Shown piece by piece: positions 5,625 to 32,715 of a stretch of DNA of 43,633 nt. Each line of letters opens with the position of its first letter. The stretch's first letter is position 1. Source of the DNA: Candidatus Woesebacteria bacterium GW2011_GWB1_38_8b (lineage in GTDB: Bacteria; Patescibacteriota; Microgenomatia; UBA8517); NCBI GenBank assembly GCA_000993115.1, contig LBVN01000003.1, forward strand, positions 1 to 43,633. Direction: 5' to 3'. The notes beneath the pieces were generated by a model that saw only the letters and a list, made by a program, of their open reading frames with translations, was not told the origin of the DNA and ran no database searches. A program made the position numbers and the translations under genes.

Positions 5625-6884
5625 ATGTCATCAGTAGTTTTGTACTTCCAAGTTCATCAGCCGCTGCGGATTAAAAAATACCGCGTGTTTGACATGGGGA
5701 ATTCTCACGAATATTTTAATGACGAAGGGGATTCATCTTTAAATAATAAAAAAATTCTTCGCAAAGTAGCTGCAAAATCCTATTTACCCGCTAATGAGCT
5801 GATTCTAAAACTTCTGAAAAGACACAAAGAATTCAAAGCCAGTTATTCTTTTTCGGGAGTATTTTTGGAGCAGATTGTGAAATACGCACCTGAAGTATTG
5901 GAATCTTTTCAGAAATTAGTAAAGACTGGGAAAGTTGAAATTCTAGGCGAAACTTATTACCATTCGCTTTCATTTTTTTATTCCCGGCATGAGTTTGAAA
6001 GCCAGGTCGTACTGCACGAAAAAACAATAAAAAAGCTTTTTGGTTATACTCCGAAAGTTTTTCGAAATACAGAGCTTGCATATAATAATGATTTGGCTCA
6101 CTGGGCTGATAAAAAATATCTGGGGATTTTGGCCGAAGGATGGGATTCGTTTTTGGGATGGAGAAGTCCTAATTTTTTATATAAGCCGCAAGGTACTACG
6201 AAAATTAAATTACTTTTGAAAAATTATAAGTTGTCGGATGATATAGCTTTTCGCTTTTCGCAAAAATCCTGGCCGGAGTTTCCTCTAACCGCTCCGAAAT
6301 TTGCATCTTGGGTTAATCAAATAAACGGAAACGGTGATGTAGTAAATCTTTTTATGGATTACGAAACTTTCGGTGAGCATCAATGGAAAGAGCATGGTAT
6401 TTTTGATTTTTTGGAAAACATGCCAGGGGAAATTCTGAAACATCCCGACAATGATTTTGTAACACCTACCGAAGCCTGCAAGAAGTATCCAACTATGGAC
6501 GAAGTAGATGTGCCTTATGTTGTAACTTGGGCAGATACAGAACGGGATTTGTCAGCCTGGGTTGGTAACCAAATCCAAAAGAGCGCAATTGATTATATTT
6601 ATTCGATGGAGCGTGAAATTAATAAGACACGTGATGCCAGGCTTTTAGACGATTGGAGAAAAATGCAAACATCGGATCATTTTTATTACATGTGTACAAA
6701 ATGGTTTTCGGACGGTGACGTTCATAAATATTTCAATCCTTATGAATCTCCATATGACGCTTTTATTTCATACATGAATGCAGCAAGTGACCTGAAATTG
6801 CGGGTTAATGAAAAACTTAATCAAACTCATATTGAGCATATAGCGCTTCAAAAAAAGTGGGCAAAATCAGTGGCTGTAAGCTAA
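5625..6884 (+). CDS. GH57 alpha-amylase
   Basis: FQVHQP, ETYYHSL, FRNTEL (catalytic E), LSDDIAFRF, FMDYETFGEH (catalytic D), TSDHFYYM. Confidence 0.92.
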   Translation: MSSVVLYFQVHQPLRIKKYRVFDMGNSHEYFNDEGDSSLNNKKILRKVAAKSYLPANELILKLLKRHKEFKASYSFSGVFLEQIVKYAPEVLESFQKLVKTGKVEILGETYYHSLSFFYSRHEFESQVVLHEKTIKKLFGYTPKVFRNTELAYNNDLAHWADKKYLGILAEGWDSFLGWRSPNFLYKPQGTTKIKLLLKNYKLSDDIAFRFSQKSWPEFPLTAPKFASWVNQINGNGDVVNLFMDYETFGEHQWKEHGIFDFLENMPGEILKHPDNDFVTPTEACKKYPTMDEVDVPYVVTWADTERDLSAWVGNQIQKSAIDYIYSMEREINKTRDARLLDDWRKMQTSDHFYYMCTKWFSDGDVHKYFNPYESPYDAFISYMNAASDLKLRVNEKLNQTHIEHIALQKKWAKSVAVS

Positions 6885-21195: not shown

Positions 21196-21209
21196 GTAAA
21201 GAAAAAGGT

Positions 21210-21788
21210 ATGGAGGACAGAAAAATAAATAAAAAGAAAAAGTTGATGACTTACGGTGGAGTTGGTTTAGTCTTGATAATTCTTCTTTTGATTATAAGAT
21301 CCGGTGGAAATAAGAATAATCGAAATACTTCAGTCTTAAGTAATTCAAATACTTCAATCAACGCCCCGCTCGTGACAAAAGAAATAAAAAGAGAATTCTC
21401 ATTCCCCCTTCGTAATTCAAAAAAGGAAGAAGTAAGTACGTTAAAGTTTTCAATCGAGACCGTTGAGATAAGAAACGAAATATTGGTTAAAGGGCAAAGA
21501 GCACAGGCTGTATCGGGGAGAGAATTCTTGATAATTAATTTAAAAGTTACCAATAATTTTTCGAACGCAATCCAGCTTAGTACAAAAGATTATGTTCGGT
21601 TGGCAGTGAACGGAAACGAGAATGAATGGTTGGCGCCGGATATTCATAATGATCCTGTCGAAGTTCAAGCTGACTCGACAAAATATACTAGAGTAGGTTT
21701 TCCTGTAAATTCAACTGACAAAGATTTTATCCTTAGGGTTGGGGAAATCAACGGAAGCAAAGAAACCATTAAACTCGAAATTCGGTAA
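21210..21788 (+). CDS. Single-TM protein with Ig-like (DUF4352-like) domain
   Basis: TM; FLIINLKVTN...VEVQADSTK...GF.V. Confidence 0.65.
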   Translation: MEDRKINKKKKLMTYGGVGLVLIILLLIIRSGGNKNNRNTSVLSNSNTSINAPLVTKEIKREFSFPLRNSKKEEVSTLKFSIETVEIRNEILVKGQRAQAVSGREFLIINLKVTNNFSNAIQLSTKDYVRLAVNGNENEWLAPDIHNDPVEVQADSTKYTRVGFPVNSTDKDFILRVGEINGSKETIKLEIR

Positions 21789-21832
21789 TCAATTAACTTA
21801 AAAGTTCTGCACAAGTATCATTGTTTCCTAAA

Positions 21833-22051
21833 ATGAAACAAACATATTCTACAAAAAATATATCACAGGTTCTCTTAAACGAAATAAAAGATGCATTGAA
21901 AAATGTTACTGAATACGGAAGTATTGAAATCTATATCCAGGGTGGGTGTGTTACCCAAATTACTACCAGAAAAATTAAGAAGACCAATGGCTACGGCTTA
22001 AAAAATCACGAAAATATGACCAATAACGGACACAAAAAGGATTTGTCATAA
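21833..22051 (+). CDS. YezD/DUF2292-like small basic protein
   Basis: IKDALKNVTEYGSIEIYIQGGCVTQITTRKIKK matches the YezD pattern (I..i..GSv.i.i.dG.V.Qi); start could be 21821 or 21833. Confidence 0.7.
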   Translation: MKQTYSTKNISQVLLNEIKDALKNVTEYGSIEIYIQGGCVTQITTRKIKKTNGYGLKNHENMTNNGHKKDLS

Positions 22052-22109
22052 TCTTCTGATGCATGTTATATTGCTTATACTATATAGATATCCAACTAAA
22101 TTAATGTGC

Positions 22110-22138
22110 TTGACAAAGTCAAAATATATCGTTATAAA
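22110..22138 (+). promoter_or_regulatory. Sigma70-type promoter (second candidate at 22152-22179)
   Basis: TTGACA-17 nt-TATAAA; also TTGACC-16 nt-TATAAA. Confidence 0.7.
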
Positions 22139-22188
22139 TTACTTTATATAGTTGACCTATATTTAAGTAGTTATATAAACATATAAAA

Positions 22189-22325
22189 AATGATCTTCTG
22201 CCCCTTTGAAAGATTATTGAGAGTTCACCGCAAACGGAGACTCTCCGATTTAACAAATTAGTTTGAATCGGGGCGTCTCCGTTTATTTTTTCTCAATGTT
22301 ATGTTGGGAAGTAAAGATAAACGGA
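22189..22325 (+). promoter_or_regulatory. Attenuator-like 5' leader with mutually exclusive terminator/antiterminator folds
   Basis: Terminator aaacggagac...gtctccgttt+attttttc (22232-22291); competing stems gagagt/actctc (22219-22245) and tccgtttat/ataaacgga (22278-22325). Confidence 0.7.
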
Positions 22326-22385
22326 AGGAGTAAAATTACAAATAATTTGTAATTCTAAATACGTAGAAAGGAGGTGAAAATAAAA

Positions 22386-23648
22386 ATGACTTTAAAAAAG
22401 AAATTAACAACAGCAGTTGCCACAGCAGCATTATTTATGAACTTCGCTCTTCCGGTCGCAGCACAAACTATTTCCGGTAATAATAGTGATTCTGAGAATT
22501 ATATTAATACCGACGTAGATTATGACTTTGACTTGGATCAGAATAACGATGCGGACGTTGAAAACAGCGTCAATATAAGTCTTGATAGCGGTGGTAACAA
22601 GGTAAAGGATGTTGTTGGAGGTGAAGTTGAAATAGAAACTGGTGATCTAGAAGCTGGAGTTCAAGTAATGAACCAACTTAACATGAACGTAGCATCTTTT
22701 GATGTTTGCGGATCATGCGGAATGACCGGTGATTTCAAAATTGCCGACAATAATAGCGGTTCAGACAACGACATTGATTACGACTATGAATCAGATTTTG
22801 ATCTTGATCAAGATAATGATGCAGACGTCGAAAATGATGTCGATGTAACAGGCAAAACTGGCGATAACGAGGTTGATGACACGATGAACGGTGACGTATC
22901 TGTTAAAACAGGTGACGTTACAGTTAATCCAATCATCATTAAAAACGCTCTTAACGCCAACTGGGCAGTAGTTTCTTCTTCAGATGAAGAAGAGGACGGT
23001 GTCTCAGCCTGGATTCTTGGCAACAACTCAGATAGTGACAATTTCATTAATTTGGATTTTGATCACGATACTGATGTTGATCAAGATAATGATGCCGATG
23101 TTGAGAATGATGTAGCAGTTTCTGCAAAAACTGGTTATAACGACGTTGATGACGTCGCTGGAGCCGGTGTTTCTATCGACACAGGTGATGTTGAAGTAGG
23201 GGTCATGATTGATACTATGGCTAACTTTAACATGGCTGCAGTCGAAGACTGTTGCTTCTTGGGTGATCAGGAAACAAAGATCGCCGACAACAATGTCGAC
23301 TCAGATAACGATATCGAAGTCGATTTAGACTTAGATTTCGAGTTGGACCAAGATAATGACTTTGACTGCGGAACCAGCAAAGGTTGGTTTGACAATTTCC
23401 TTAGAGGTTACGAAGGCGGAAGTGATTGTAACGAAGTTGACGTAACTGGAGGAACCGGAGACAACGAAGTTGAAGATGCTGCTGCCGGCGGGCATGATCC
23501 TGAAATAACAACAGGTGATGCTGCAGCTGCAGTTCAATTAAGCACTTCGGCTAATGTAAACGTCGAAGGTGGAGCTGGTGTAGATTTTGATGTAGATTTC
23601 GGAGAAGTCGCAGACATGCTCGGAGATCTTTTCGATCTACTCGACTAA
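22386..23648 (+). CDS. Secreted, very Asp-rich protein with four ~80-aa NNSxSxN / QxNxAxVxN / TGD repeats
   Basis: SD aaaggaggtg (the ORF-track GTG at 22374 is part of it); signal peptide ending VAA|Q; repeats visible in the translation. Confidence 0.85.
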   Translation: MTLKKKLTTAVATAALFMNFALPVAAQTISGNNSDSENYINTDVDYDFDLDQNNDADVENSVNISLDSGGNKVKDVVGGEVEIETGDLEAGVQVMNQLNMNVASFDVCGSCGMTGDFKIADNNSGSDNDIDYDYESDFDLDQDNDADVENDVDVTGKTGDNEVDDTMNGDVSVKTGDVTVNPIIIKNALNANWAVVSSSDEEEDGVSAWILGNNSDSDNFINLDFDHDTDVDQDNDADVENDVAVSAKTGYNDVDDVAGAGVSIDTGDVEVGVMIDTMANFNMAAVEDCCFLGDQETKIADNNVDSDNDIEVDLDLDFELDQDNDFDCGTSKGWFDNFLRGYEGGSDCNEVDVTGGTGDNEVEDAAAGGHDPEITTGDAAAAVQLSTSANVNVEGGAGVDFDVDFGEVADMLGDLFDLLD

Positions 23649-23696
23649 GATTTGGTAGGTTTGAGTGGGGGGTTTCCCTCACTCAAACTCCAAGTC
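23649..23696 (+). other. Strong intergenic hairpin without a T tract (mRNA stabiliser or partial terminator)
   Basis: gtttgagtgggg-gttt-ccctcactcaaac with outer gatttgg/ccaagtc. Confidence 0.65.
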
Positions 23697-23733
23697 CGAA
23701 TTAGAAAAATAAATAAATTTAAATATTAATAAA

Positions 23734-25908
23734 ATGAAAATAAAGAAAATAATTACAGTAATTACAATAGTATCGCTGCTTTTGGGGTATTCGGTACCTT
23801 TTAGTGCGGGAGGATTTGTAATTGCACAGACCTCTCCTTCAGAGCCGAGTTCGCCGGAGCAACCTGCAGCCCCCGACCAACCGGATAGTCCGGATCAACC
23901 AAGTGGTCCTGACGAACCTGAAAGCCCGGATTTGCCCGAAGACACCAGTACAGGTAGTAGTGAACAAAATGTCGAAACACCTGATACGACAACTACGGAT
24001 CAAACCGAAGGCACTAATAATACAGGCTCCCAGGATGTGAATGGAAATGTTGGTGATACAAACGTAACAACAGGAGACGCGACAGCAACAGGAGCGCTTC
24101 TTACCGATACAAACTTAAATACTTCAACCAATCCGACAGCGGGAACTGCCGGAACGTCTATTGTAAATGAGGGAAATAACTCAGGATCAGTCAATGTCTC
24201 CGATGTTACGCAGAACTCGACCTCTACAATTAATCAAGACAATAATGCCGTTATAACAAATAGCGCAGATCTTTCAGCAGTCACAGGCGGAAATACAGTT
24301 GCCAATAATATGAACGGTAACGTGACTATTGAATCGGGGGATGCTAATACTGCACTTACGGTAATCAATCAGGCAAATACAAATATTGCCGGAGTTGATG
24401 TTGTTGAATTTAATGTTTTTGACGATCAGGTAGGTGACGTAATTTTGGATTTTAGTAATCCTTGCGCCGCAGGTAGCGGGTGCACAGCCGGAACCCCGGT
24501 TTACGTCGGAAATACGAACAATAATTCAGATTCAACTAATACCGCCCAATACACATCCGATGTAAACAATTCAACTTTCCAAAATAACGATGCAGTAATT
24601 GAGAACAATATTATCCTAAACTCCGATTCGGGAGGCAATTTGGCAACAGACAATATGAACGGGGATACAAATATTAAAACCGGTGATGCAAATGTTTCTG
24701 CAAACGTAGCCAATCTGGTAAACAACAATTTCCAGGGTGAGGTTTATTACGGAGTTGTGAACGTCTTTGGAGATTTAATCGGAGATATAATTCTTGCTAC
24801 AACCCCGACAACCTCTACCCCGGGTACAGTTATTGATAATTCCGGGAACGGATCAGGGTCAACAAACTTTGCAAATGTTGATACAAGCGTGTCAAATGAC
24901 TATACACAGAATAACAATCTGAATTTGGATACAAATATTAACGCTACGGGGACTACCGGTGACAATACTGCATCAGCAAACATGCAGGGAGGGCAATCAA
25001 TTGAGTCAGGCGACGCGAGTTTTACAGGTCAGATATTTAATGTAGCCAATAATAATGTTACAGGCGGCGATTGGTGGATAGTATTGGTAAACGATGCAGG
25101 CAATTGGATCGGAAAAATCGTGGGTGGCCAGGAAGGCATGAATTATGCCGGATCAGCCGGAACGGAATTTATAGTTAATCCTGACGGATCAATAACCGCT
25201 GTCAACAGCGGAAACAATAGCGGTTCAACTAATACTGCAAACGTTACACAAAACACTCAAAATACTGTAACTCAAAATAACAATGCATCAATAACAAATA
25301 ACTTGAACTTAAGTGGAAACACCGGTGGAAACACAATCCAAAACTCCATGAATGGCGGAGCTTCGGTTGAAACAGGGGATGTAAACATAGTTGCATCCGT
25401 TGTTAACTTTGTAAACAATAATTTTTCCGGAGGACGGGTTTACATGACAGTTGTCAACGTACTGGGAGGAAAATGGCTAGGAAACTTTATTGCCCCCGGT
25501 CATACAAAAGAGGAAGCCTTGGCACAAAACCCGGAACCGACTCCGGAGCCAGCACTGGGAGGATTAGATAATGATCCTGATGAGGATTCAATTGCGCTAA
25601 TTAATCCAACAACTACTAAAAAGACGAAGAAAACAATCCAGTCTTCCACACCGACAACAACTCCGGTGCAATCAGTCTTGGCTGCAATCACAGGACGATC
25701 AACCAGCGCTTCTGGAGGAAGTCTTGTAAACCCTGTAATCGATGGTGAGGAATATGATGAGGCAGCAGCATTGGCAGGTGATATTGCAGTTGCAAAAAGT
25801 AAAATACGAATCAATTTAGCCTGGGCGATTATAATTGCTCCCCTTCTTTTTGCGATACCGCTGGCAAAAAGAAAATTATTCGCAAAACTGCCTTCCAAAA
25901 AGAACTAA
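23734..25908 (+). CDS. Secreted Asn/Thr-rich repeat protein (same repeat, ~4.5 copies) with C-terminal TM anchor
   Basis: Signal peptide, (PxxP)n acidic linker, GNNSGSxN...QxNNA...TGGN...I.TGDA repeats, TM followed by KRK. Confidence 0.85.
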   Translation: MKIKKIITVITIVSLLLGYSVPFSAGGFVIAQTSPSEPSSPEQPAAPDQPDSPDQPSGPDEPESPDLPEDTSTGSSEQNVETPDTTTTDQTEGTNNTGSQDVNGNVGDTNVTTGDATATGALLTDTNLNTSTNPTAGTAGTSIVNEGNNSGSVNVSDVTQNSTSTINQDNNAVITNSADLSAVTGGNTVANNMNGNVTIESGDANTALTVINQANTNIAGVDVVEFNVFDDQVGDVILDFSNPCAAGSGCTAGTPVYVGNTNNNSDSTNTAQYTSDVNNSTFQNNDAVIENNIILNSDSGGNLATDNMNGDTNIKTGDANVSANVANLVNNNFQGEVYYGVVNVFGDLIGDIILATTPTTSTPGTVIDNSGNGSGSTNFANVDTSVSNDYTQNNNLNLDTNINATGTTGDNTASANMQGGQSIESGDASFTGQIFNVANNNVTGGDWWIVLVNDAGNWIGKIVGGQEGMNYAGSAGTEFIVNPDGSITAVNSGNNSGSTNTANVTQNTQNTVTQNNNASITNNLNLSGNTGGNTIQNSMNGGASVETGDVNIVASVVNFVNNNFSGGRVYMTVVNVLGGKWLGNFIAPGHTKEEALAQNPEPTPEPALGGLDNDPDEDSIALINPTTTKKTKKTIQSSTPTTTPVQSVLAAITGRSTSASGGSLVNPVIDGEEYDEAAALAGDIAVAKSKIRINLAWAIIIAPLLFAIPLAKRKLFAKLPSKKN

Positions 25909-27141
25909 ATGGAAGTAAAAATAAGAAAGACACTTCAGACAATACTTGCCTTGGTTGTGGCCGTAAGGCTTGTTTTTCCATTGGTTATTATCGCTCAAAC
26001 CGTTGAAGAAAATAATTCCGGATCAACAAACACAGTTACGGAAAATGTATCTTCGACTCAAACCACCAACCAGACAAACCAGGCAGATATAGGAAAAAGC
26101 GTAAATGTTTCACTTAATACCGGCGGAAATACTGTTTCCTCGTCGACGGGAAATTCTACAATTAATACCGGAGATACCAGTTTCTCGACATCAGTTGAAA
26201 CGGCTGCTAACACCTCTGTCGTTGACAGCGGTTGTTGTGCCGAAGCAACACCAGATCCAACAAAAATTTCCGACAATAACTCCGACTCGACAAATACAAT
26301 AAATACTACTTCTGAAACAACAACTGTGGTTGATATCGATCAGAACGCGACAATTACCAATAAAATAAACGCGACTCTTTCTACCGGAGGAAATTCAATT
26401 TCCGATTCAACCGGAAATTCAACAATTACGACCGGTGATGTAAAAGTAAAAGGCGAGATAAATAACGGTCCTATTAATTATGCGGACGTTACTTTAGGTG
26501 GTTCAGGCACCAACGTCTCAACTGTAATCACAAGTAATAATTCAGGCTCCACTAATATCATTTATAACAGCTTCAAAAACTACAGCGACATTAATGTAAA
26601 TAATTCTGCGAAAGTTAAAAACTTACTGTCATTTCTTTTGGACAGCGGAAATAACAGCATTGAAAATAATATAGGAAGTGCAAAAATTTCTACGGGAGAT
26701 ATATTCTTTGTTTTCAAAATTAATAATGCCATAAATGTTTCAAAAATTACTTATGCATGCTGCGGAGACAGTTGTCCTGACCCCGTGGCACCGACGCCAA
26801 CGGCCACTACGACCGCTACACCCACTCCGACACCAACCGGTGCAATTGGTGGCCCACCGACAACGACCTCAACAAATAATAATGACGACGACGATGACAA
26901 TGGTGGAAGCGGAGGATCTGTTGAAAAAAGAGTTGCGTCAATGGTGTTGGGTGCAACCGGAAGTTTTATGGAAAATTTGTTTTATGTATTTTTTGCATTG
27001 GGAAGTATTTTGATCGGATTTGGAATTAGGAAAAACGGGATATCATATATTTATAATTTTGGCTTGGGAACTGCAAGAAGGATAAGATTATATTCCAAAA
27101 TATTTACTTCCAGCCAATTTGAATTGACCCTTTATATTTGA
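25909..27141 (+). CDS. Secreted repeat protein (3 copies) with Pro/Thr linker, VLGATG and TM (possible sortase substrate)
   Basis: ATG abuts the previous stop; same repeats; LGATG-hydrophobic helix-RK. Confidence 0.8.
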   Translation: MEVKIRKTLQTILALVVAVRLVFPLVIIAQTVEENNSGSTNTVTENVSSTQTTNQTNQADIGKSVNVSLNTGGNTVSSSTGNSTINTGDTSFSTSVETAANTSVVDSGCCAEATPDPTKISDNNSDSTNTINTTSETTTVVDIDQNATITNKINATLSTGGNSISDSTGNSTITTGDVKVKGEINNGPINYADVTLGGSGTNVSTVITSNNSGSTNIIYNSFKNYSDINVNNSAKVKNLLSFLLDSGNNSIENNIGSAKISTGDIFFVFKINNAINVSKITYACCGDSCPDPVAPTPTATTTATPTPTPTGAIGGPPTTTSTNNNDDDDDNGGSGGSVEKRVASMVLGATGSFMENLFYVFFALGSILIGFGIRKNGISYIYNFGLGTARRIRLYSKIFTSSQFELTLYI

Positions 27142-29534: not shown

Positions 29535-30086
29535 ATGTTAGCTAAATTTTTTGGGAAAATAAGACGATTGAGTGGTGTGTTTTTGATCTTGGCGGGTGTA
29601 TTTTTTCTGCTAGTTGCTGCCTTTGTAAAAAATTACTCGGAGAAAGTATTGTCTTTTTCAACTCCCGATGGCGGGGAGGAAGCCGTTTCTAAAGCTGCAA
29701 AGGTAAAAGAAATTTATATTGAAAGTTTAAACATCAAGTTGCCGATTACTGAGTCCAAAATCGAAAACGGTATATGGCAAGTATCGCAGGACGGCGCAAG
29801 CCATCTGGATATTTCGGCAAATCCGGGTGAGGGTGGAAATATTGTTTTATATGGCCACAACAAAGCAAATCTTTTTGGAAGACTTACAAGAATAAAAATC
29901 GGGCAGGTGGTTGAACTAAAAGACGAGTTTGGAATTACCCATAAGTATTCGGTTGAAAGTACGACAACCGTAACGCCCGATCAAATTGACTATGTTCTGC
30001 CTAAGAATACCGAAACACTGACGTTTTATACATGTGTTGGATTTATGGATTCAAAAAGGTTTATTGTAACCGCTAAACCAATATAA
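29535..30086 (+). CDS. Sortase (class D/E-like), catalytic triad intact
   Basis: TM; NIVLYGHN (His), TLTFYTC (Cys), KRFIV (Arg); TGa-TATAAT leaderless promoter. Confidence 0.9.
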   Translation: MLAKFFGKIRRLSGVFLILAGVFFLLVAAFVKNYSEKVLSFSTPDGGEEAVSKAAKVKEIYIESLNIKLPITESKIENGIWQVSQDGASHLDISANPGEGGNIVLYGHNKANLFGRLTRIKIGQVVELKDEFGITHKYSVESTTTVTPDQIDYVLPKNTETLTFYTCVGFMDSKRFIVTAKPI

Positions 30087-30167: not shown

Positions 30168-30836
30168 ATGAATTTCAGAAACCTTGCCAATTTTAGTACA
30201 ATTGTAGCGCTTTCTTTTATGTTACTTGCGCATACGGCTTTTGCGGCTGAATCAGAGTTTTCAGCGAGTGGTTTTGCCCAGTTTTGTGCAAAAAATCCAA
30301 GCATATGTAAAAAGGTAGATGTAAGCGGTAGGAAAGCCGGATTGAAATGTCCCGATTTTAACAATCAAATTGCAACAAAAGTTTATGTCCATGCAGGTGA
30401 CGGTCAGGTAATTTATGAAATGCCACACGTTGGGTTCAATTACGCAATCAACCTATACGGAGTTGGGGGAGCAGAAGTTGAAGTAACGACTCACAAACAC
30501 GATTTAAGCTGGGTTGCGGTTGAGTGTTCTTCTAAAAGCACTCCTAGCCAATCGCCTACGGTTACACCTGCGAATACATTAACACCCACTCAAACACCAA
30601 CTAGTACAGATACACCTGGTGTTACTGAAACACCAACACCAACCCCTACTAACGGAGAAAACAACAACAGTAATTCAAGTTCCGGCTCAAATGATTCCGG
30701 ACGTGGAGGCGCAGAAATCTTAGGTGCCACAACTCTTGCGTTTACAGGAGCTCCATTAACCGGAATTCCAACAATGATACTTTTGGGTGGACTTTCCATT
30801 CTTCTTCAGGGGTTTAAACTCATCATAAAAAAGTAA
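30168..30836 (+). CDS. Secreted Cys/His-containing protein with LAFTG sortase sorting signal
   Basis: Signal peptide AFA|A; Pro/Thr linker; EILGATT-LAFTG-hydrophobic-KK; adjacent to the sortase. Confidence 0.8.
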   Translation: MNFRNLANFSTIVALSFMLLAHTAFAAESEFSASGFAQFCAKNPSICKKVDVSGRKAGLKCPDFNNQIATKVYVHAGDGQVIYEMPHVGFNYAINLYGVGGAEVEVTTHKHDLSWVAVECSSKSTPSQSPTVTPANTLTPTQTPTSTDTPGVTETPTPTPTNGENNNSNSSSGSNDSGRGGAEILGATTLAFTGAPLTGIPTMILLGGLSILLQGFKLIIKK

Positions 30837-30870
30837 CCATTTAGGGCAGCTTGGGTGTAAAATAAGATTG

Positions 30871-32715
30871 ATGAGGAAAATACTTGCGTTTTTTGCATCA
30901 ATACTAACCCTTTTTATTTTTACTTCAAAAGCGGCTTTTGCCCAAGACAGTTATATTATTGAGGACTTCAAAAGTGACATTACCATTAATCGCGATACAT
31001 CTGTAACTGTCGCCGAAACTATAAGAGCTAAATTTCGCTACGATAAACACGGGATAATAAGGGTTCTGCCGGCAGTTTATTCCCACGCGGGAAAAAGCAT
31101 TAATTCTCATATTAAAATAATCTCAGTTACAGATGAAGACGGAAATTATTATAACTATACGACCGAAAGATTGAACCAAAGTATCCGCTTAAAAATCGGC
31201 GATCCGGATAAAACAATTACCGGCACTCACATTTATAAAATAGAATACAAATTAAACGGAGTTATTTTAAAATACGATGGAATTCCTGAATTTTATTGGA
31301 ATGTTAACGGCCACGAATGGGATACACAAATTATGAGCGCTTCTGCAACTGTAAAAACGGACTATGCAAAACCTATCGATACAATTTGCTACACAGGGTT
31401 ACCCGATTCAGGCGACTCTGATTGCGAAAAATTAACATACGATGACCATGTAGAATTTTCAACTCTGGAAATTAACCCCGGAGCCGATTTTTCGTTTGCT
31501 GTGAAGTTTGATACCAATAATTCCTTAATTTTTCCAAGCAGCTCTCAGAGGTTATCTTCGTCAGCTTTTGATAATTGGGGATATATCCCGTCGGTCATTC
31601 CGCTTTTTTTGATCGTTTATATCTGGTACAAAAAAGGCCGGGATGAAAAGTATGTTGGAGACAATTATTACTACAAGCCCGATAATCCAAAAACCGAAAC
31701 AGTCACAATATTTAAGCGGGGACATATTCCCTTGGTTTATCATCCATTAGACGGTTTGTCTCCTGCGCAGGTAGGAACTATTTTGGATGAACGCATTGAC
31801 ATTAACGACATTGTTGCAGAAATTGTTGAGTTGGCACGTTTGAAATTTATAAAAATTGAAAAACTGCCTAAGAAAAACGTTTTATCAAAACAAGATTATG
31901 CAATCACTAAACTTAATAAAGATGACGCAAAACTGACCGATTATCAAAAAGAAATTATAAAAGAATTATTCAGAAATCAAATACAATCAGATTCGATTTT
32001 TGAACTAGCAAAACTTATCGAAAATCCAACCGATGAAGAGAAGGAGCTGAAAAAAACCGTCGGAGCCGATTATGTAACATTATCTTCATTGAAAAATCAT
32101 TTTTATGCGGCGCTTCCCAACATAAAGAAAAAAGTTTATAAAAGCCTGGCAGAAGCCGAACTTTTTGATGGGAGCCCTGATACTGTAAGAATAAAATATA
32201 TCGGACTGTTTATATTTTTGAGTTTCGTATTTGGATTTTTAACACTCATATATAGTATTTATTATTATAATTTTGTTCCGCTTTTCTTATTTATAATGGG
32301 AAGTGTTTTTGGCATATTTTTTGCAATGGCTATGCCGAAAAAAACTGCATGGGGTTATTCAATGTATAAGCAGGTCCGGGGACTTCGTGAATACTTGGAA
32401 GTTGGAAAATGGAGACACGAAAACTATGAGAAAAATATGTTTTTTGAAGAAATGATACCGTTGGCAATATCTTTAGGGGTAATTAATAAATTGGCAGGAG
32501 ATATGAATGAATTGGGGATTCAACCGCCAAGGTATATGAGCGGATTTACGATAGCACATTTTGCCTCGGATATGAGTTCGTTTAGATCAACGGCCGCATC
32601 AACCTTTGCTTCCGTTCCTGGCGGATCAGGACACTCTAGTTGGGGTGGTGGGTCAGGGTTTTCCGGTGGCGGCTCAGGCGGGGGGTTTGGTGGAGGGGGA
32701 GGGGGAAGTTGGTAG
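30871..32715 (+). CDS. DUF2207 family membrane protein
   Basis: VAETI...KHGIIR, IGDPD, EFYWNVNG..W, PLDGLSPA, P.AISLG, Gly-rich GGGGGSW C-terminus. Confidence 0.9.
   Translation: MRKILAFFASILTLFIFTSKAAFAQDSYIIEDFKSDITINRDTSVTVAETIRAKFRYDKHGIIRVLPAVYSHAGKSINSHIKIISVTDEDGNYYNYTTERLNQSIRLKIGDPDKTITGTHIYKIEYKLNGVILKYDGIPEFYWNVNGHEWDTQIMSASATVKTDYAKPIDTICYTGLPDSGDSDCEKLTYDDHVEFSTLEINPGADFSFAVKFDTNNSLIFPSSSQRLSSSAFDNWGYIPSVIPLFLIVYIWYKKGRDEKYVGDNYYYKPDNPKTETVTIFKRGHIPLVYHPLDGLSPAQVGTILDERIDINDIVAEIVELARLKFIKIEKLPKKNVLSKQDYAITKLNKDDAKLTDYQKEIIKELFRNQIQSDSIFELAKLIENPTDEEKELKKTVGADYVTLSSLKNHFYAALPNIKKKVYKSLAEAELFDGSPDTVRIKYIGLFIFLSFVFGFLTLIYSIYYYNFVPLFLFIMGSVFGIFFAMAMPKKTAWGYSMYKQVRGLREYLEVGKWRHENYEKNMFFEEMIPLAISLGVINKLAGDMNELGIQPPRYMSGFTIAHFASDMSSFRSTAASTFASVPGGSGHSSWGGGSGFSGGGSGGGFGGGGGGSW

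Follow-up and report, generated by a model that had tools for sequence, protein, structure and literature searches.

A conserved hairpin that competes with a terminator ahead of surface-protein genes in Woesebacteria, with a DUF2292 protein as its candidate partner

Does the leader of a surface-protein operon in a Candidate Phyla Radiation (CPR) bacterium work as a switch and, if it does, what would throw it? The question is raised by a locus of Candidatus Woesebacteria bacterium GW2011_GWB1_38_8b, within the window analysed here, a stretch of 43,633 nucleotides (nt; contig LBVN01000003.1, positions 1 to 43,633 of the forward strand). CPR bacteria are uncultured and have tiny genomes, and to our knowledge almost no gene regulation has been characterised in them. 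In the window, a gene for a small protein of the DUF2292 (YezD-like) family is separated from a cluster of surface-protein genes on the same + strand by an intergenic region of 334 nt. The original prediction, made from the sequence alone, placed an undescribed antitermination switch in this region, with the basic YezD-like protein as candidate binder of a bulged hairpin. We set out the anatomy of this RNA, its conservation and covariation and its association with DUF2292 genes, all of which the analysis shows, and weigh what they suggest about the protein. The argument turns on the following features.

21833 to 22051, + strand: DUF2292 (YezD-like) gene, 72 amino acids (aa), recognised by a match to PF10055 over residues 15-43 (25.9 bits, cut-off 22)
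22110 to 22138, + strand: promoter-like element, read from the sequence, with TTGACA at 22110-22115, a 17-nt spacer and TATAAA at 22133-22138
22219 to 22245, + strand: P1, a bulged hairpin and candidate antiterminator or operator, with a conserved 19-nt core at 22223-22241 (folding and covariation)
22232 to 22291, + strand: intrinsic terminator, with a stem at 22232-22284 that includes a variable apical hairpin (22246-22270) and a U-tract at 22285-22291 (folding and covariation)
22278 to 22326, + strand: H3, the terminator 3' arm and U-tract paired with the downstream segment AUAAACGGAAGG (folding)

The YezD-like gene of the original prediction is thus confirmed by its PF10055 match, and the TTGACA-17-TATAAA promoter is present, one base to the left of the position implied. 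The predicted bulged hairpin P1 (GAGAGU-UCA-CCG-CAAA-CGG-AG-ACUCUC), whose core in the window is GUUCACCGCAAACGGAGAC at 22223-22241, folds at -10.7 kcal/mol when extended to 22219-22245. It overlaps the extended terminator that had also been predicted, which has the make-up of an intrinsic terminator, a G+C-rich stem at 22232-22284 followed directly by the tail UUUAUUUUUU; for the region 22210-22295 the folding energy is -34.1 kcal/mol (z = -7.7), a stability that 0 of 200 shuffles attain. Segment 22232-22245 is common to the 3' side of the hairpin and the 5' arm of the terminator, so the hairpin fold and the terminator fold are mutually exclusive, as claimed, and the GGAGG word of the hairpin is paired in both alternatives. 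When the transcript stops at the U-tract, the terminator form reaches -30.5 kcal/mol against -19.4 kcal/mol for a form in which the hairpin is forced, and the terminator is thus favoured by about 11 kcal/mol once RNA polymerase is at the U-tract. The full 239-nt leader, on the other hand, prefers the hairpin, the variable hairpin and H3 together (-59.9 kcal/mol, z = -4.2), with the predicted downstream pairing of the terminator 3' arm contributing a helix at 22278-22326 of -19.5 kcal/mol. The downstream partner in H3 is recognisable elsewhere, with an AAACGG-like word 3' of the T-run at 43 of 71 loci (13 of 71 for the reversed control). We also considered reading the internal loop of P1 as a kink-turn, and rejected this on inspection, the 3' strand before the closing stem being AG, not GA.

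We regard it as very probable that this RNA is a genuine hairpin-versus-terminator attenuator. In the mechanism that we propose, the terminator would by default outcompete the weaker hairpin, and transcripts begun at the leader promoter would end at 22285-22291. Because the terminator is energetically favoured, a factor holding the hairpin would switch the operon on: a trans-acting factor that clamps the hairpin would remove the foot of the terminator and permit read-through into the surface-protein genes. The likeliest such factor would be the basic DUF2292 protein encoded just upstream, acting as a homodimer. Once polymerase has read through, the downstream AAACGG segment would capture the freed terminator 3' arm, and the long mRNA would stay open. 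Since the AAACGG segment is transcribed later, H3 lies outside the termination decision, and its role is probably to block refolding into the terminator form and to hold the CCUCC arm off the Shine-Dalgarno (SD) sequence. That DUF2292 binds the hairpin, and that binding turns expression on rather than off, we infer from these relationships. For the model as a whole, in which a hairpin-terminator attenuator governs the surface operon and DUF2292 is the hairpin-holding factor that switches expression on, we see an even chance.

The leader can be followed well beyond the window. When the intergenic region was used as a blastn query against 61 genomes (that of the window, G000, and 60 relatives), matches in other genera were limited to the hairpin/terminator part. 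A 20-nt pattern occurs in exactly one copy each in 25 of the 125 genomes of the family, and a covariance model (R1), built on a 24-sequence alignment (A2), finds one locus per genome in 39 of them, 34 with E < 1e-10; the second model match in each genome is the same hairpin on the opposite strand and was not counted as a locus. The family consensus of the hairpin core is GCUGACCGCAAACGGAGGC, and a degenerate 19-mer pattern gives 39 matches in 33 of the 125 genomes, where the reversed control gives none. One of these matches, in G026, was taken as chance; it lies inside an open reading frame (ORF) on the other strand. Conservation across so many genomes makes the hairpin/terminator element more than a chance fold.

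In the 24-sequence alignment, 96.4% of the cells of the terminator helix are paired and 10 of its 22 pairs are changed on both sides, values that 0 of 500 shuffles attain. For the hairpin we turned to a wider set of 79 distinct copies, from Woese-, Gottesman-, Chisholm-, Ames-, Curtiss- and Levybacteria and from WWE3, in which the six core pairs are intact in 76 to 79 copies. A16, G8 and C13 are without variation and GGAGG is essentially invariant, while the 4-nt loop is variable. Compensatory changes are rare (pair 1-19 to A-U twice, 2-18 to U-A twice, 7-14 to U-A once), and further changes preserve pairing (6-15 to G.U once; 3-17 to U.G or C-G). At position 18 both the window and, independently, a Levybacteria locus (L160) carry A in place of G, and in each of them both partners of this base have changed with it, the hairpin C2 to U and a C of the terminator 3' arm to U. 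In lineages with a different terminator, where the overlap comprises only the last 3-4 nt (AGGC), the inner stem of the hairpin is kept or compensated (L084, L086, L087, L096, L100). Both competing helices, then, keep their pairing through compensatory changes, and the double compensation at position 18 together with the kept inner stem implies that both are under selection.

The element has no counterpart among described RNA families. Searching the whole window with the Rfam 15 covariance models gave 0 matches at the gathering score, as did 11 related loci, and relaxing the threshold to E <= 10 on 21700-22500 gave 12 matches, all far under the gathering score and none of them to c-di-GMP-I/II, ydaO/c-di-AMP, fluoride or T-box RNAs, in line with the original reading. 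The sub-threshold matches to microRNAs, small nucleolar RNAs and viral untranslated regions were dismissed as noise from the long hairpin. Nor did a search of the literature on CPR regulatory RNAs (supplementary files excluded) turn up any description of a hairpin-terminator element of this kind.

A second line of evidence connects the RNA with DUF2292. The DUF2292 gene of the window is the only copy in its genome, and PF10055 is found in 45 of the 125 family genomes, among them 38 of the 39 that bear the RNA; the RNA usually lies 100-300 nt downstream of DUF2292 on the same strand. A membrane protein, DUF2292, the leader and a signal-peptide protein of 420-440 aa follow one another in this order at 24 of 25 family loci. 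The sole RNA-bearing family genome with no DUF2292 match is G103, in which the RNA lies 899 nt from a contig end, and among five weak RNA matches DUF2292 is adjacent except in G103 and G098. The degenerate 19-mer likewise falls in DUF2292-bearing genomes in 32 of 33 cases.

Outside the family the association holds too. Of 401 genomes sampled evenly across the phylum, eight have DUF2292. At loci from four other families and one other class the hairpin lies within 100-300 nt of it (about 1.1 kb away in G372); one locus (L094, in G416) carries a variant hairpin, and G081 has a different DUF2292 subfamily in another context and no hairpin. The pattern matches of this sample that we judged real (G250, G372, G507 twice and G314 twice) are all in DUF2292-bearing genomes. 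Five other matches with G+C-rich loops were taken as chance, the reversed-pattern control giving 6 matches in 5 genomes. A search for close DUF2292 relatives used one genome per species and a query of 7 close rows, which biases its sample to the CPR subfamily. It gave 62 DUF2292 loci in other genomes (Woese-, Chisholm-, Gottesman-, Ames-, Curtiss- and Levybacteria, WWE3 and others), and 60 of them have the RNA downstream on the same strand, the two misses being a natural deletion of hairpin and terminator and a Curtissbacteria-type locus, at which the RNA normally lies more than 1 kb off. Metagenome contigs allowed the converse selection, by RNA. Scanning with an exact 16-mer gave at least 120 stretches, of which 80 were listed as loci; by our own inspection of context, 39 of these 80 were judged true and the rest chance occurrences in G+C-rich DNA. 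Among the matches listed, the 39 RNA-selected elements have DUF2292 directly upstream in 31 cases and 2 kb downstream in 1, with 3 more having too little flanking DNA. The association persists through changes of gene order (L096, the Curtissbacteria type and L206). At L072/L118, in G016, DUF2292 and the leader promoter are separated by an inserted ORF of 380 aa, which runs on the opposite strand and puts the RNA 1.3 kb from DUF2292. As far as we searched, the element ranges over Microgenomatia-type CPR bacteria and WWE3, and a tblastn search of plasmids with DUF2292 gave no match.

Some genomes carry the hairpin more than once. In eight (G004, G115, G023, G130, G066, G091, G507 and G314) a second hairpin stands before other surface genes, and six of the eight have a single DUF2292 match in the family search, the search in G314 and G507 being a sampled scan. 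In G004, G115, G023 and G130 (loci L313-L316) the second copy lies about 6 kb downstream on the opposite strand, at the far end of the surface cluster, near the leader 5' end of a convergent gene for a surface protein of about 200 aa; these leaders have their own TTGACA promoter and no terminator, and the hairpin in G023 ends 2 nt before the SD. In G066 (L317) and G091 (L318) the second copy precedes TasA/camelysin-like and signal-peptidase genes, and in metagenome loci the hairpin is found before a glycosyltransferase/polysaccharide deacetylase operon and before a TasA/SipW-like operon. Extra hairpins beside one DUF2292 gene fit a trans-acting factor, as does G098, which has lost the hairpin and terminator beside DUF2292 and has a hairpin on a separate contig. 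The arrangement of the copies makes the hairpin look like a general operator that can serve different outputs. The same hairpin on further surface-related mRNAs of some genomes would then make up a small cell-surface regulon of DUF2292 and hairpin.

Other copies can be recorded alongside these. L176, L317, L318, L173 and L233/L326 (G507) are hairpin leaders before surface-related genes, including a PIG-L-type deacetylase gene, and in G098 a hairpin with a different terminator stands on another contig (L025) before an unrelated membrane protein gene. The genome of the window holds one strict hairpin copy and one doubtful candidate, GCUGAGCGCAAACGCAGGC, outside the window on contig C1 at about 6763-6781 (- strand), with pair 6-15 flipped to G-C. 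It has a G+C stem and a U7 run directly after the hairpin, and is flanked by a divergent gene for an XRE-type regulator and by a small ORF, with an ORF resembling a phage terminase small subunit nearby.

What kind of protein is the candidate? The product of the window's DUF2292 gene is basic, as the original prediction had it (isoelectric point 9.48; median 9.65 over 32 relatives), and its AlphaFold model (mean predicted local distance difference test score, pLDDT, 81.8) consists of one helix, a beta hairpin and a disordered basic tail. Residues G29, S30, E32, V40, Q42, R46, I48 and K50 are invariant. The protein is predicted to form a homodimer via its first strand, with a score of 0.71 against 0.00 for the best of three controls, 100% contact agreement between runs and partner pLDDT >= 84; the mark used is attained by 20 of 30 solved same-chain pairs and by 1 of 23 solved single chains. 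A search of PDB sequences with DUF2292 gave a best E of 0.77. Its nearest named relative is OscA, a sulfur-starvation protein.

The remaining parts of the leader bear on what else the RNA might do.

22156 to 22162, + strand: CCUAUAU box, seen in the leader alignment and kept in the long-leader subgroup only
22198 to 22204, + strand: CUGCCCC box, seen in the leader alignment and kept in the long-leader subgroup only
22327 to 22355, + strand: degenerate copy of a pre-SD module (closing stem, 5' bulge, hairpin at 22334-22354), from folding and the relatives' alignment
22368 to 22378, + strand: Shine-Dalgarno sequence AAAGGAGGUGA, read from the sequence, seven bases before the ATG at 22386

The CUGCCCC box could pair with GGGGCG in the 3' arm of the terminator, to which it is complementary. 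In relatives the closing stem of the pre-SD module co-varies and carries the 5' bulge GAAGUGC and a variable hairpin; as an exact word, GAAGTGC occurs in 19 of the 24 aligned family leaders (reversed control 0). GGRGGTGA is found up to 311 nt downstream of the hairpin at 71 of 76 loci, and TTGACA up to 260 nt upstream of it at 63 of 76 (9 of 76 for the reversed word). The window's promoter is omitted by the consensus promoter scanner, which demands T at the last -10 position. The SD of the regulated genes is unusually long (22365-22378), being AGAAAGGGGGUGA in most loci and AGAAAGGAGGUGA in the window. A natural deletion in G098 (L110/L077) precisely removes the hairpin and terminator beside DUF2292. 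The CUGCCCC box is its left end-point, CUGCCC being joined directly to GUUUUCGUUUG, and the promoter, the GAAGUGC module, the SD and the surface gene are retained. As for expression, two studies supplied four metatranscriptome RNA runs with contigs from relatives (90-99% alike) that extend over 22286-23460, from the distal leader into the first surface gene; 21200-22285 is covered by none. Such contigs cannot show transcript ends or absence, and show only that RNA of this kind exists in these communities.

Several observations weigh against the model, and in particular against the part that it gives to DUF2292. For the hairpin, the 24-sequence alignment gives 88.8% pairing, where shuffles give 87.8%; 4 of its pairs differ on both sides, and its covariation amounts to few events in a near-invariant sequence. 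The surface-protein family is found in 36 of the 125 genomes, nearly the same ones as DUF2292 and the hairpin; since all three co-occur, its distribution cannot separate a link between RNA and DUF2292 from one between RNA and target, and since they are gained and lost together, presence and absence would look alike for a regulator and for a co-inherited passenger. Within the family, the co-occurrence may come from a single inherited cassette, related genomes not being independent. Four of the 39 metagenome elements (L173, L176, L216 and L233) have no DUF2292 on the contig DNA available, L233 being the second copy of a genome (G507) whose DUF2292 lies 13 kb off. Among known RNA binders none resembles the modelled DUF2292: a Foldseek search of the PDB had 0 hits at E <= 0.001, and the best Z from VIA-align over 48,161 chains was 2.4; such searches are uninformative for so small a fold. 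Its match to OscA (NF033785, an equivalog model) is weak, at 18.6 bits under a cut-off of 85. Elsewhere the family is tied to sulfur assimilation, yezD being placed beside a sulfate transporter (PMC7953295) and oscA listed with sbp among the sulfur genes of Pseudomonas (PMC10433965), in passages that give no mechanism. The literature and structures that we searched describe no RNA partner for any DUF2292, YezD or OscA member. Finally, several of the second hairpin copies have no terminator, so antitermination cannot be the only output. The predicted undescribed antitermination switch stands in so far as the element has no Rfam match and its competing folds are conserved, and none of the computational checks proposed to refute it spoke against it. 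It falls short of a full account of the hairpin, which occurs in terminator-free leaders as well; taken overall, the original interpretation is partly supported.

One could keep the attenuator and change its sensor. The leader might bind a small ligand or another protein, with DUF2292 a co-inherited gene of the cassette, for instance an assembly or export helper. The conserved CCUAUAU and CUGCCCC boxes and the GAAGUGC bulge module, for which the DUF2292 model does not account, would then have a place, and the joint gain and loss of DUF2292, RNA and surface-protein family and the lack of a recognisable RNA-binding fold in DUF2292 would cause no surprise. However, the short-leader and minimal variants hold little beyond the 19-nt hairpin before the terminator, which is small for a ligand pocket, and the extra modules are missing in other lineages while hairpin and DUF2292 persist. 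The association of RNA and DUF2292 also outlasts changes of gene order, and second hairpin copies occur solely in DUF2292-bearing genomes, so that we consider another sensor unlikely, though a rival to be reckoned with. More radically, there may be no switch at all: the terminator would end the DUF2292 transcript and dampen the promoter, and the GGAGG hairpin would be a 5' stabiliser or ribosome stand-by site of highly expressed surface mRNAs. The invariance of GGAGG, the second-copy hairpins near mRNA 5' ends with no terminator, the unusually long SD of the regulated genes and the minimal variants, in which 12-20 nt lie between the DUF2292 stop codon and the hairpin with its terminator, all agree with this, and the contig data add a weak hint, the surface genes being the sole part of the locus recovered from the relatives. 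Yet a plain terminator would not need a conserved competing hairpin, nor would one expect the overlap of hairpin 3' side and terminator foot to be kept although the terminator sequence differs among lineages, or position 18 to co-vary with both partners in two of them. Moreover, in most loci a promoter lies between DUF2292 and the terminator, and an unregulated terminator of full strength would silence the operon. We judge this account improbable. The last alternative is that the unit from promoter to terminator (about 22145-22291) is a small-RNA gene acting in trans, with read-through incidental; it does have its own promoter, a strong terminator, a conserved structure and a single main copy per genome. 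But it keeps to one orientation and one place, immediately upstream of a gene that has a strong SD and codes for a signal-peptide protein, the conserved H3 and pre-SD module lie past the terminator, which implies selection on the read-through RNA, and an RNA contig from a relative joins 22286 to the coding region. A small-RNA gene is thus a very improbable reading.

How does an attenuator held open by DUF2292 compare with known systems? Protein-dependent attenuation is known in kind, while this RNA motif is undescribed and the protein family uncharacterised. In the BglG/SacY/LicT class, a small, beta-rich dimeric protein stabilises a bulged ribonucleic antiterminator (RAT) hairpin that overlaps the terminator 5' arm, and so permits read-through. 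Here too the 3' side of the hairpin overlaps the terminator 5' arm, an overlap kept in other lineages, and a small, beta-rich and predicted-dimeric protein is the proposed stabiliser. However, the window's DUF2292 matches PF10055 only and has no CAT_RBD domain; CAT_RBD (PF03123) has no match in the 85.6%-complete genome, the control of this search matching in 4 of 14 reference genomes. The hairpin, at 19 nt with a 4-nt loop, has no Rfam match, and the targets are surface-protein genes with no evident connection to a phosphotransferase system. The system thus works like this class and is not a member of it, since the CAT domain and an Rfam match are lacking and the targets differ. As with TRAP, PyrR, HutP and the ANTAR regulators (EutV, AmiR), a trans-acting protein would choose between a terminator and an alternative leader fold. 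Those proteins bind repeated triplets or tandem hexaloop hairpins, in contrast to the one hairpin here, with its 4-nt loop and an internal loop of UGA opposite AG. ANTAR (PF03861) has no match in the genome, a weak search given that the control matched in 0 of 14 reference genomes. With YezD and OscA the locus shares a small DUF2292 protein encoded directly upstream of an exported-protein gene, although the neighbours are surface repeat proteins and not sulfate uptake genes. Lastly, the STAB-SD of cryIIIA is an SD-like 5' stabiliser of the mRNA of a highly expressed crystal protein, and the leader resembles it in having an invariant GGAGG upstream of exported proteins that is not a start site; but here GGAGG is paired in both folds and overlaps the terminator, and the likeness is confined to the GGAGG word alone.

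Whatever its sensor, the element is a widespread and structurally supported cis-regulatory RNA that has no Rfam family and is paired with an uncharacterised protein family, and its targets are the likeliest protein constituents of the cell surface with which these episymbionts face their hosts. We would tentatively go further, at a little short of even confidence, and propose that the DUF2292 proteins are small dimeric regulators of a new RNA-binding family, whose CPR branch recognises a 19-nt operator hairpin on several mRNAs, as an antiterminator on the main surface operon and elsewhere at the 5' end or beside the SD, and thereby runs a dedicated post-initiation regulon of the cell surface in Microgenomatia and WWE3. 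If this were true, it would add a new family of antiterminator proteins, give a first mechanistic lead for the YezD and OscA proteins of other phyla and provide a handle on the timing of CPR surface proteins, TasA-like fibres and glycosylation genes.

The genes that flank the DUF2292 gene and its leader are these.

21210 to 21788, + strand: membrane-anchored protein gene, 192 aa, with an N-terminal transmembrane helix; an ORF and the conserved 5' neighbour of DUF2292
22386 to 27141, + strand: cluster of three ORFs for signal-peptide repeat proteins of 420, 724 and 410 aa

The product of 21210-21788 has a weak DUF5067 match, under the cut-off. For the three surface repeat proteins there is no Pfam match and no meaningful NCBIfam match, and their clusters in the protein atlas comprise hypothetical proteins only, from Woese- and Gottesmanbacteria. 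Downstream (3') of the surface cluster lies a sortase-like ORF of 183 aa (29535-30086), followed by genes for signal-peptide and membrane proteins (30168-32715).

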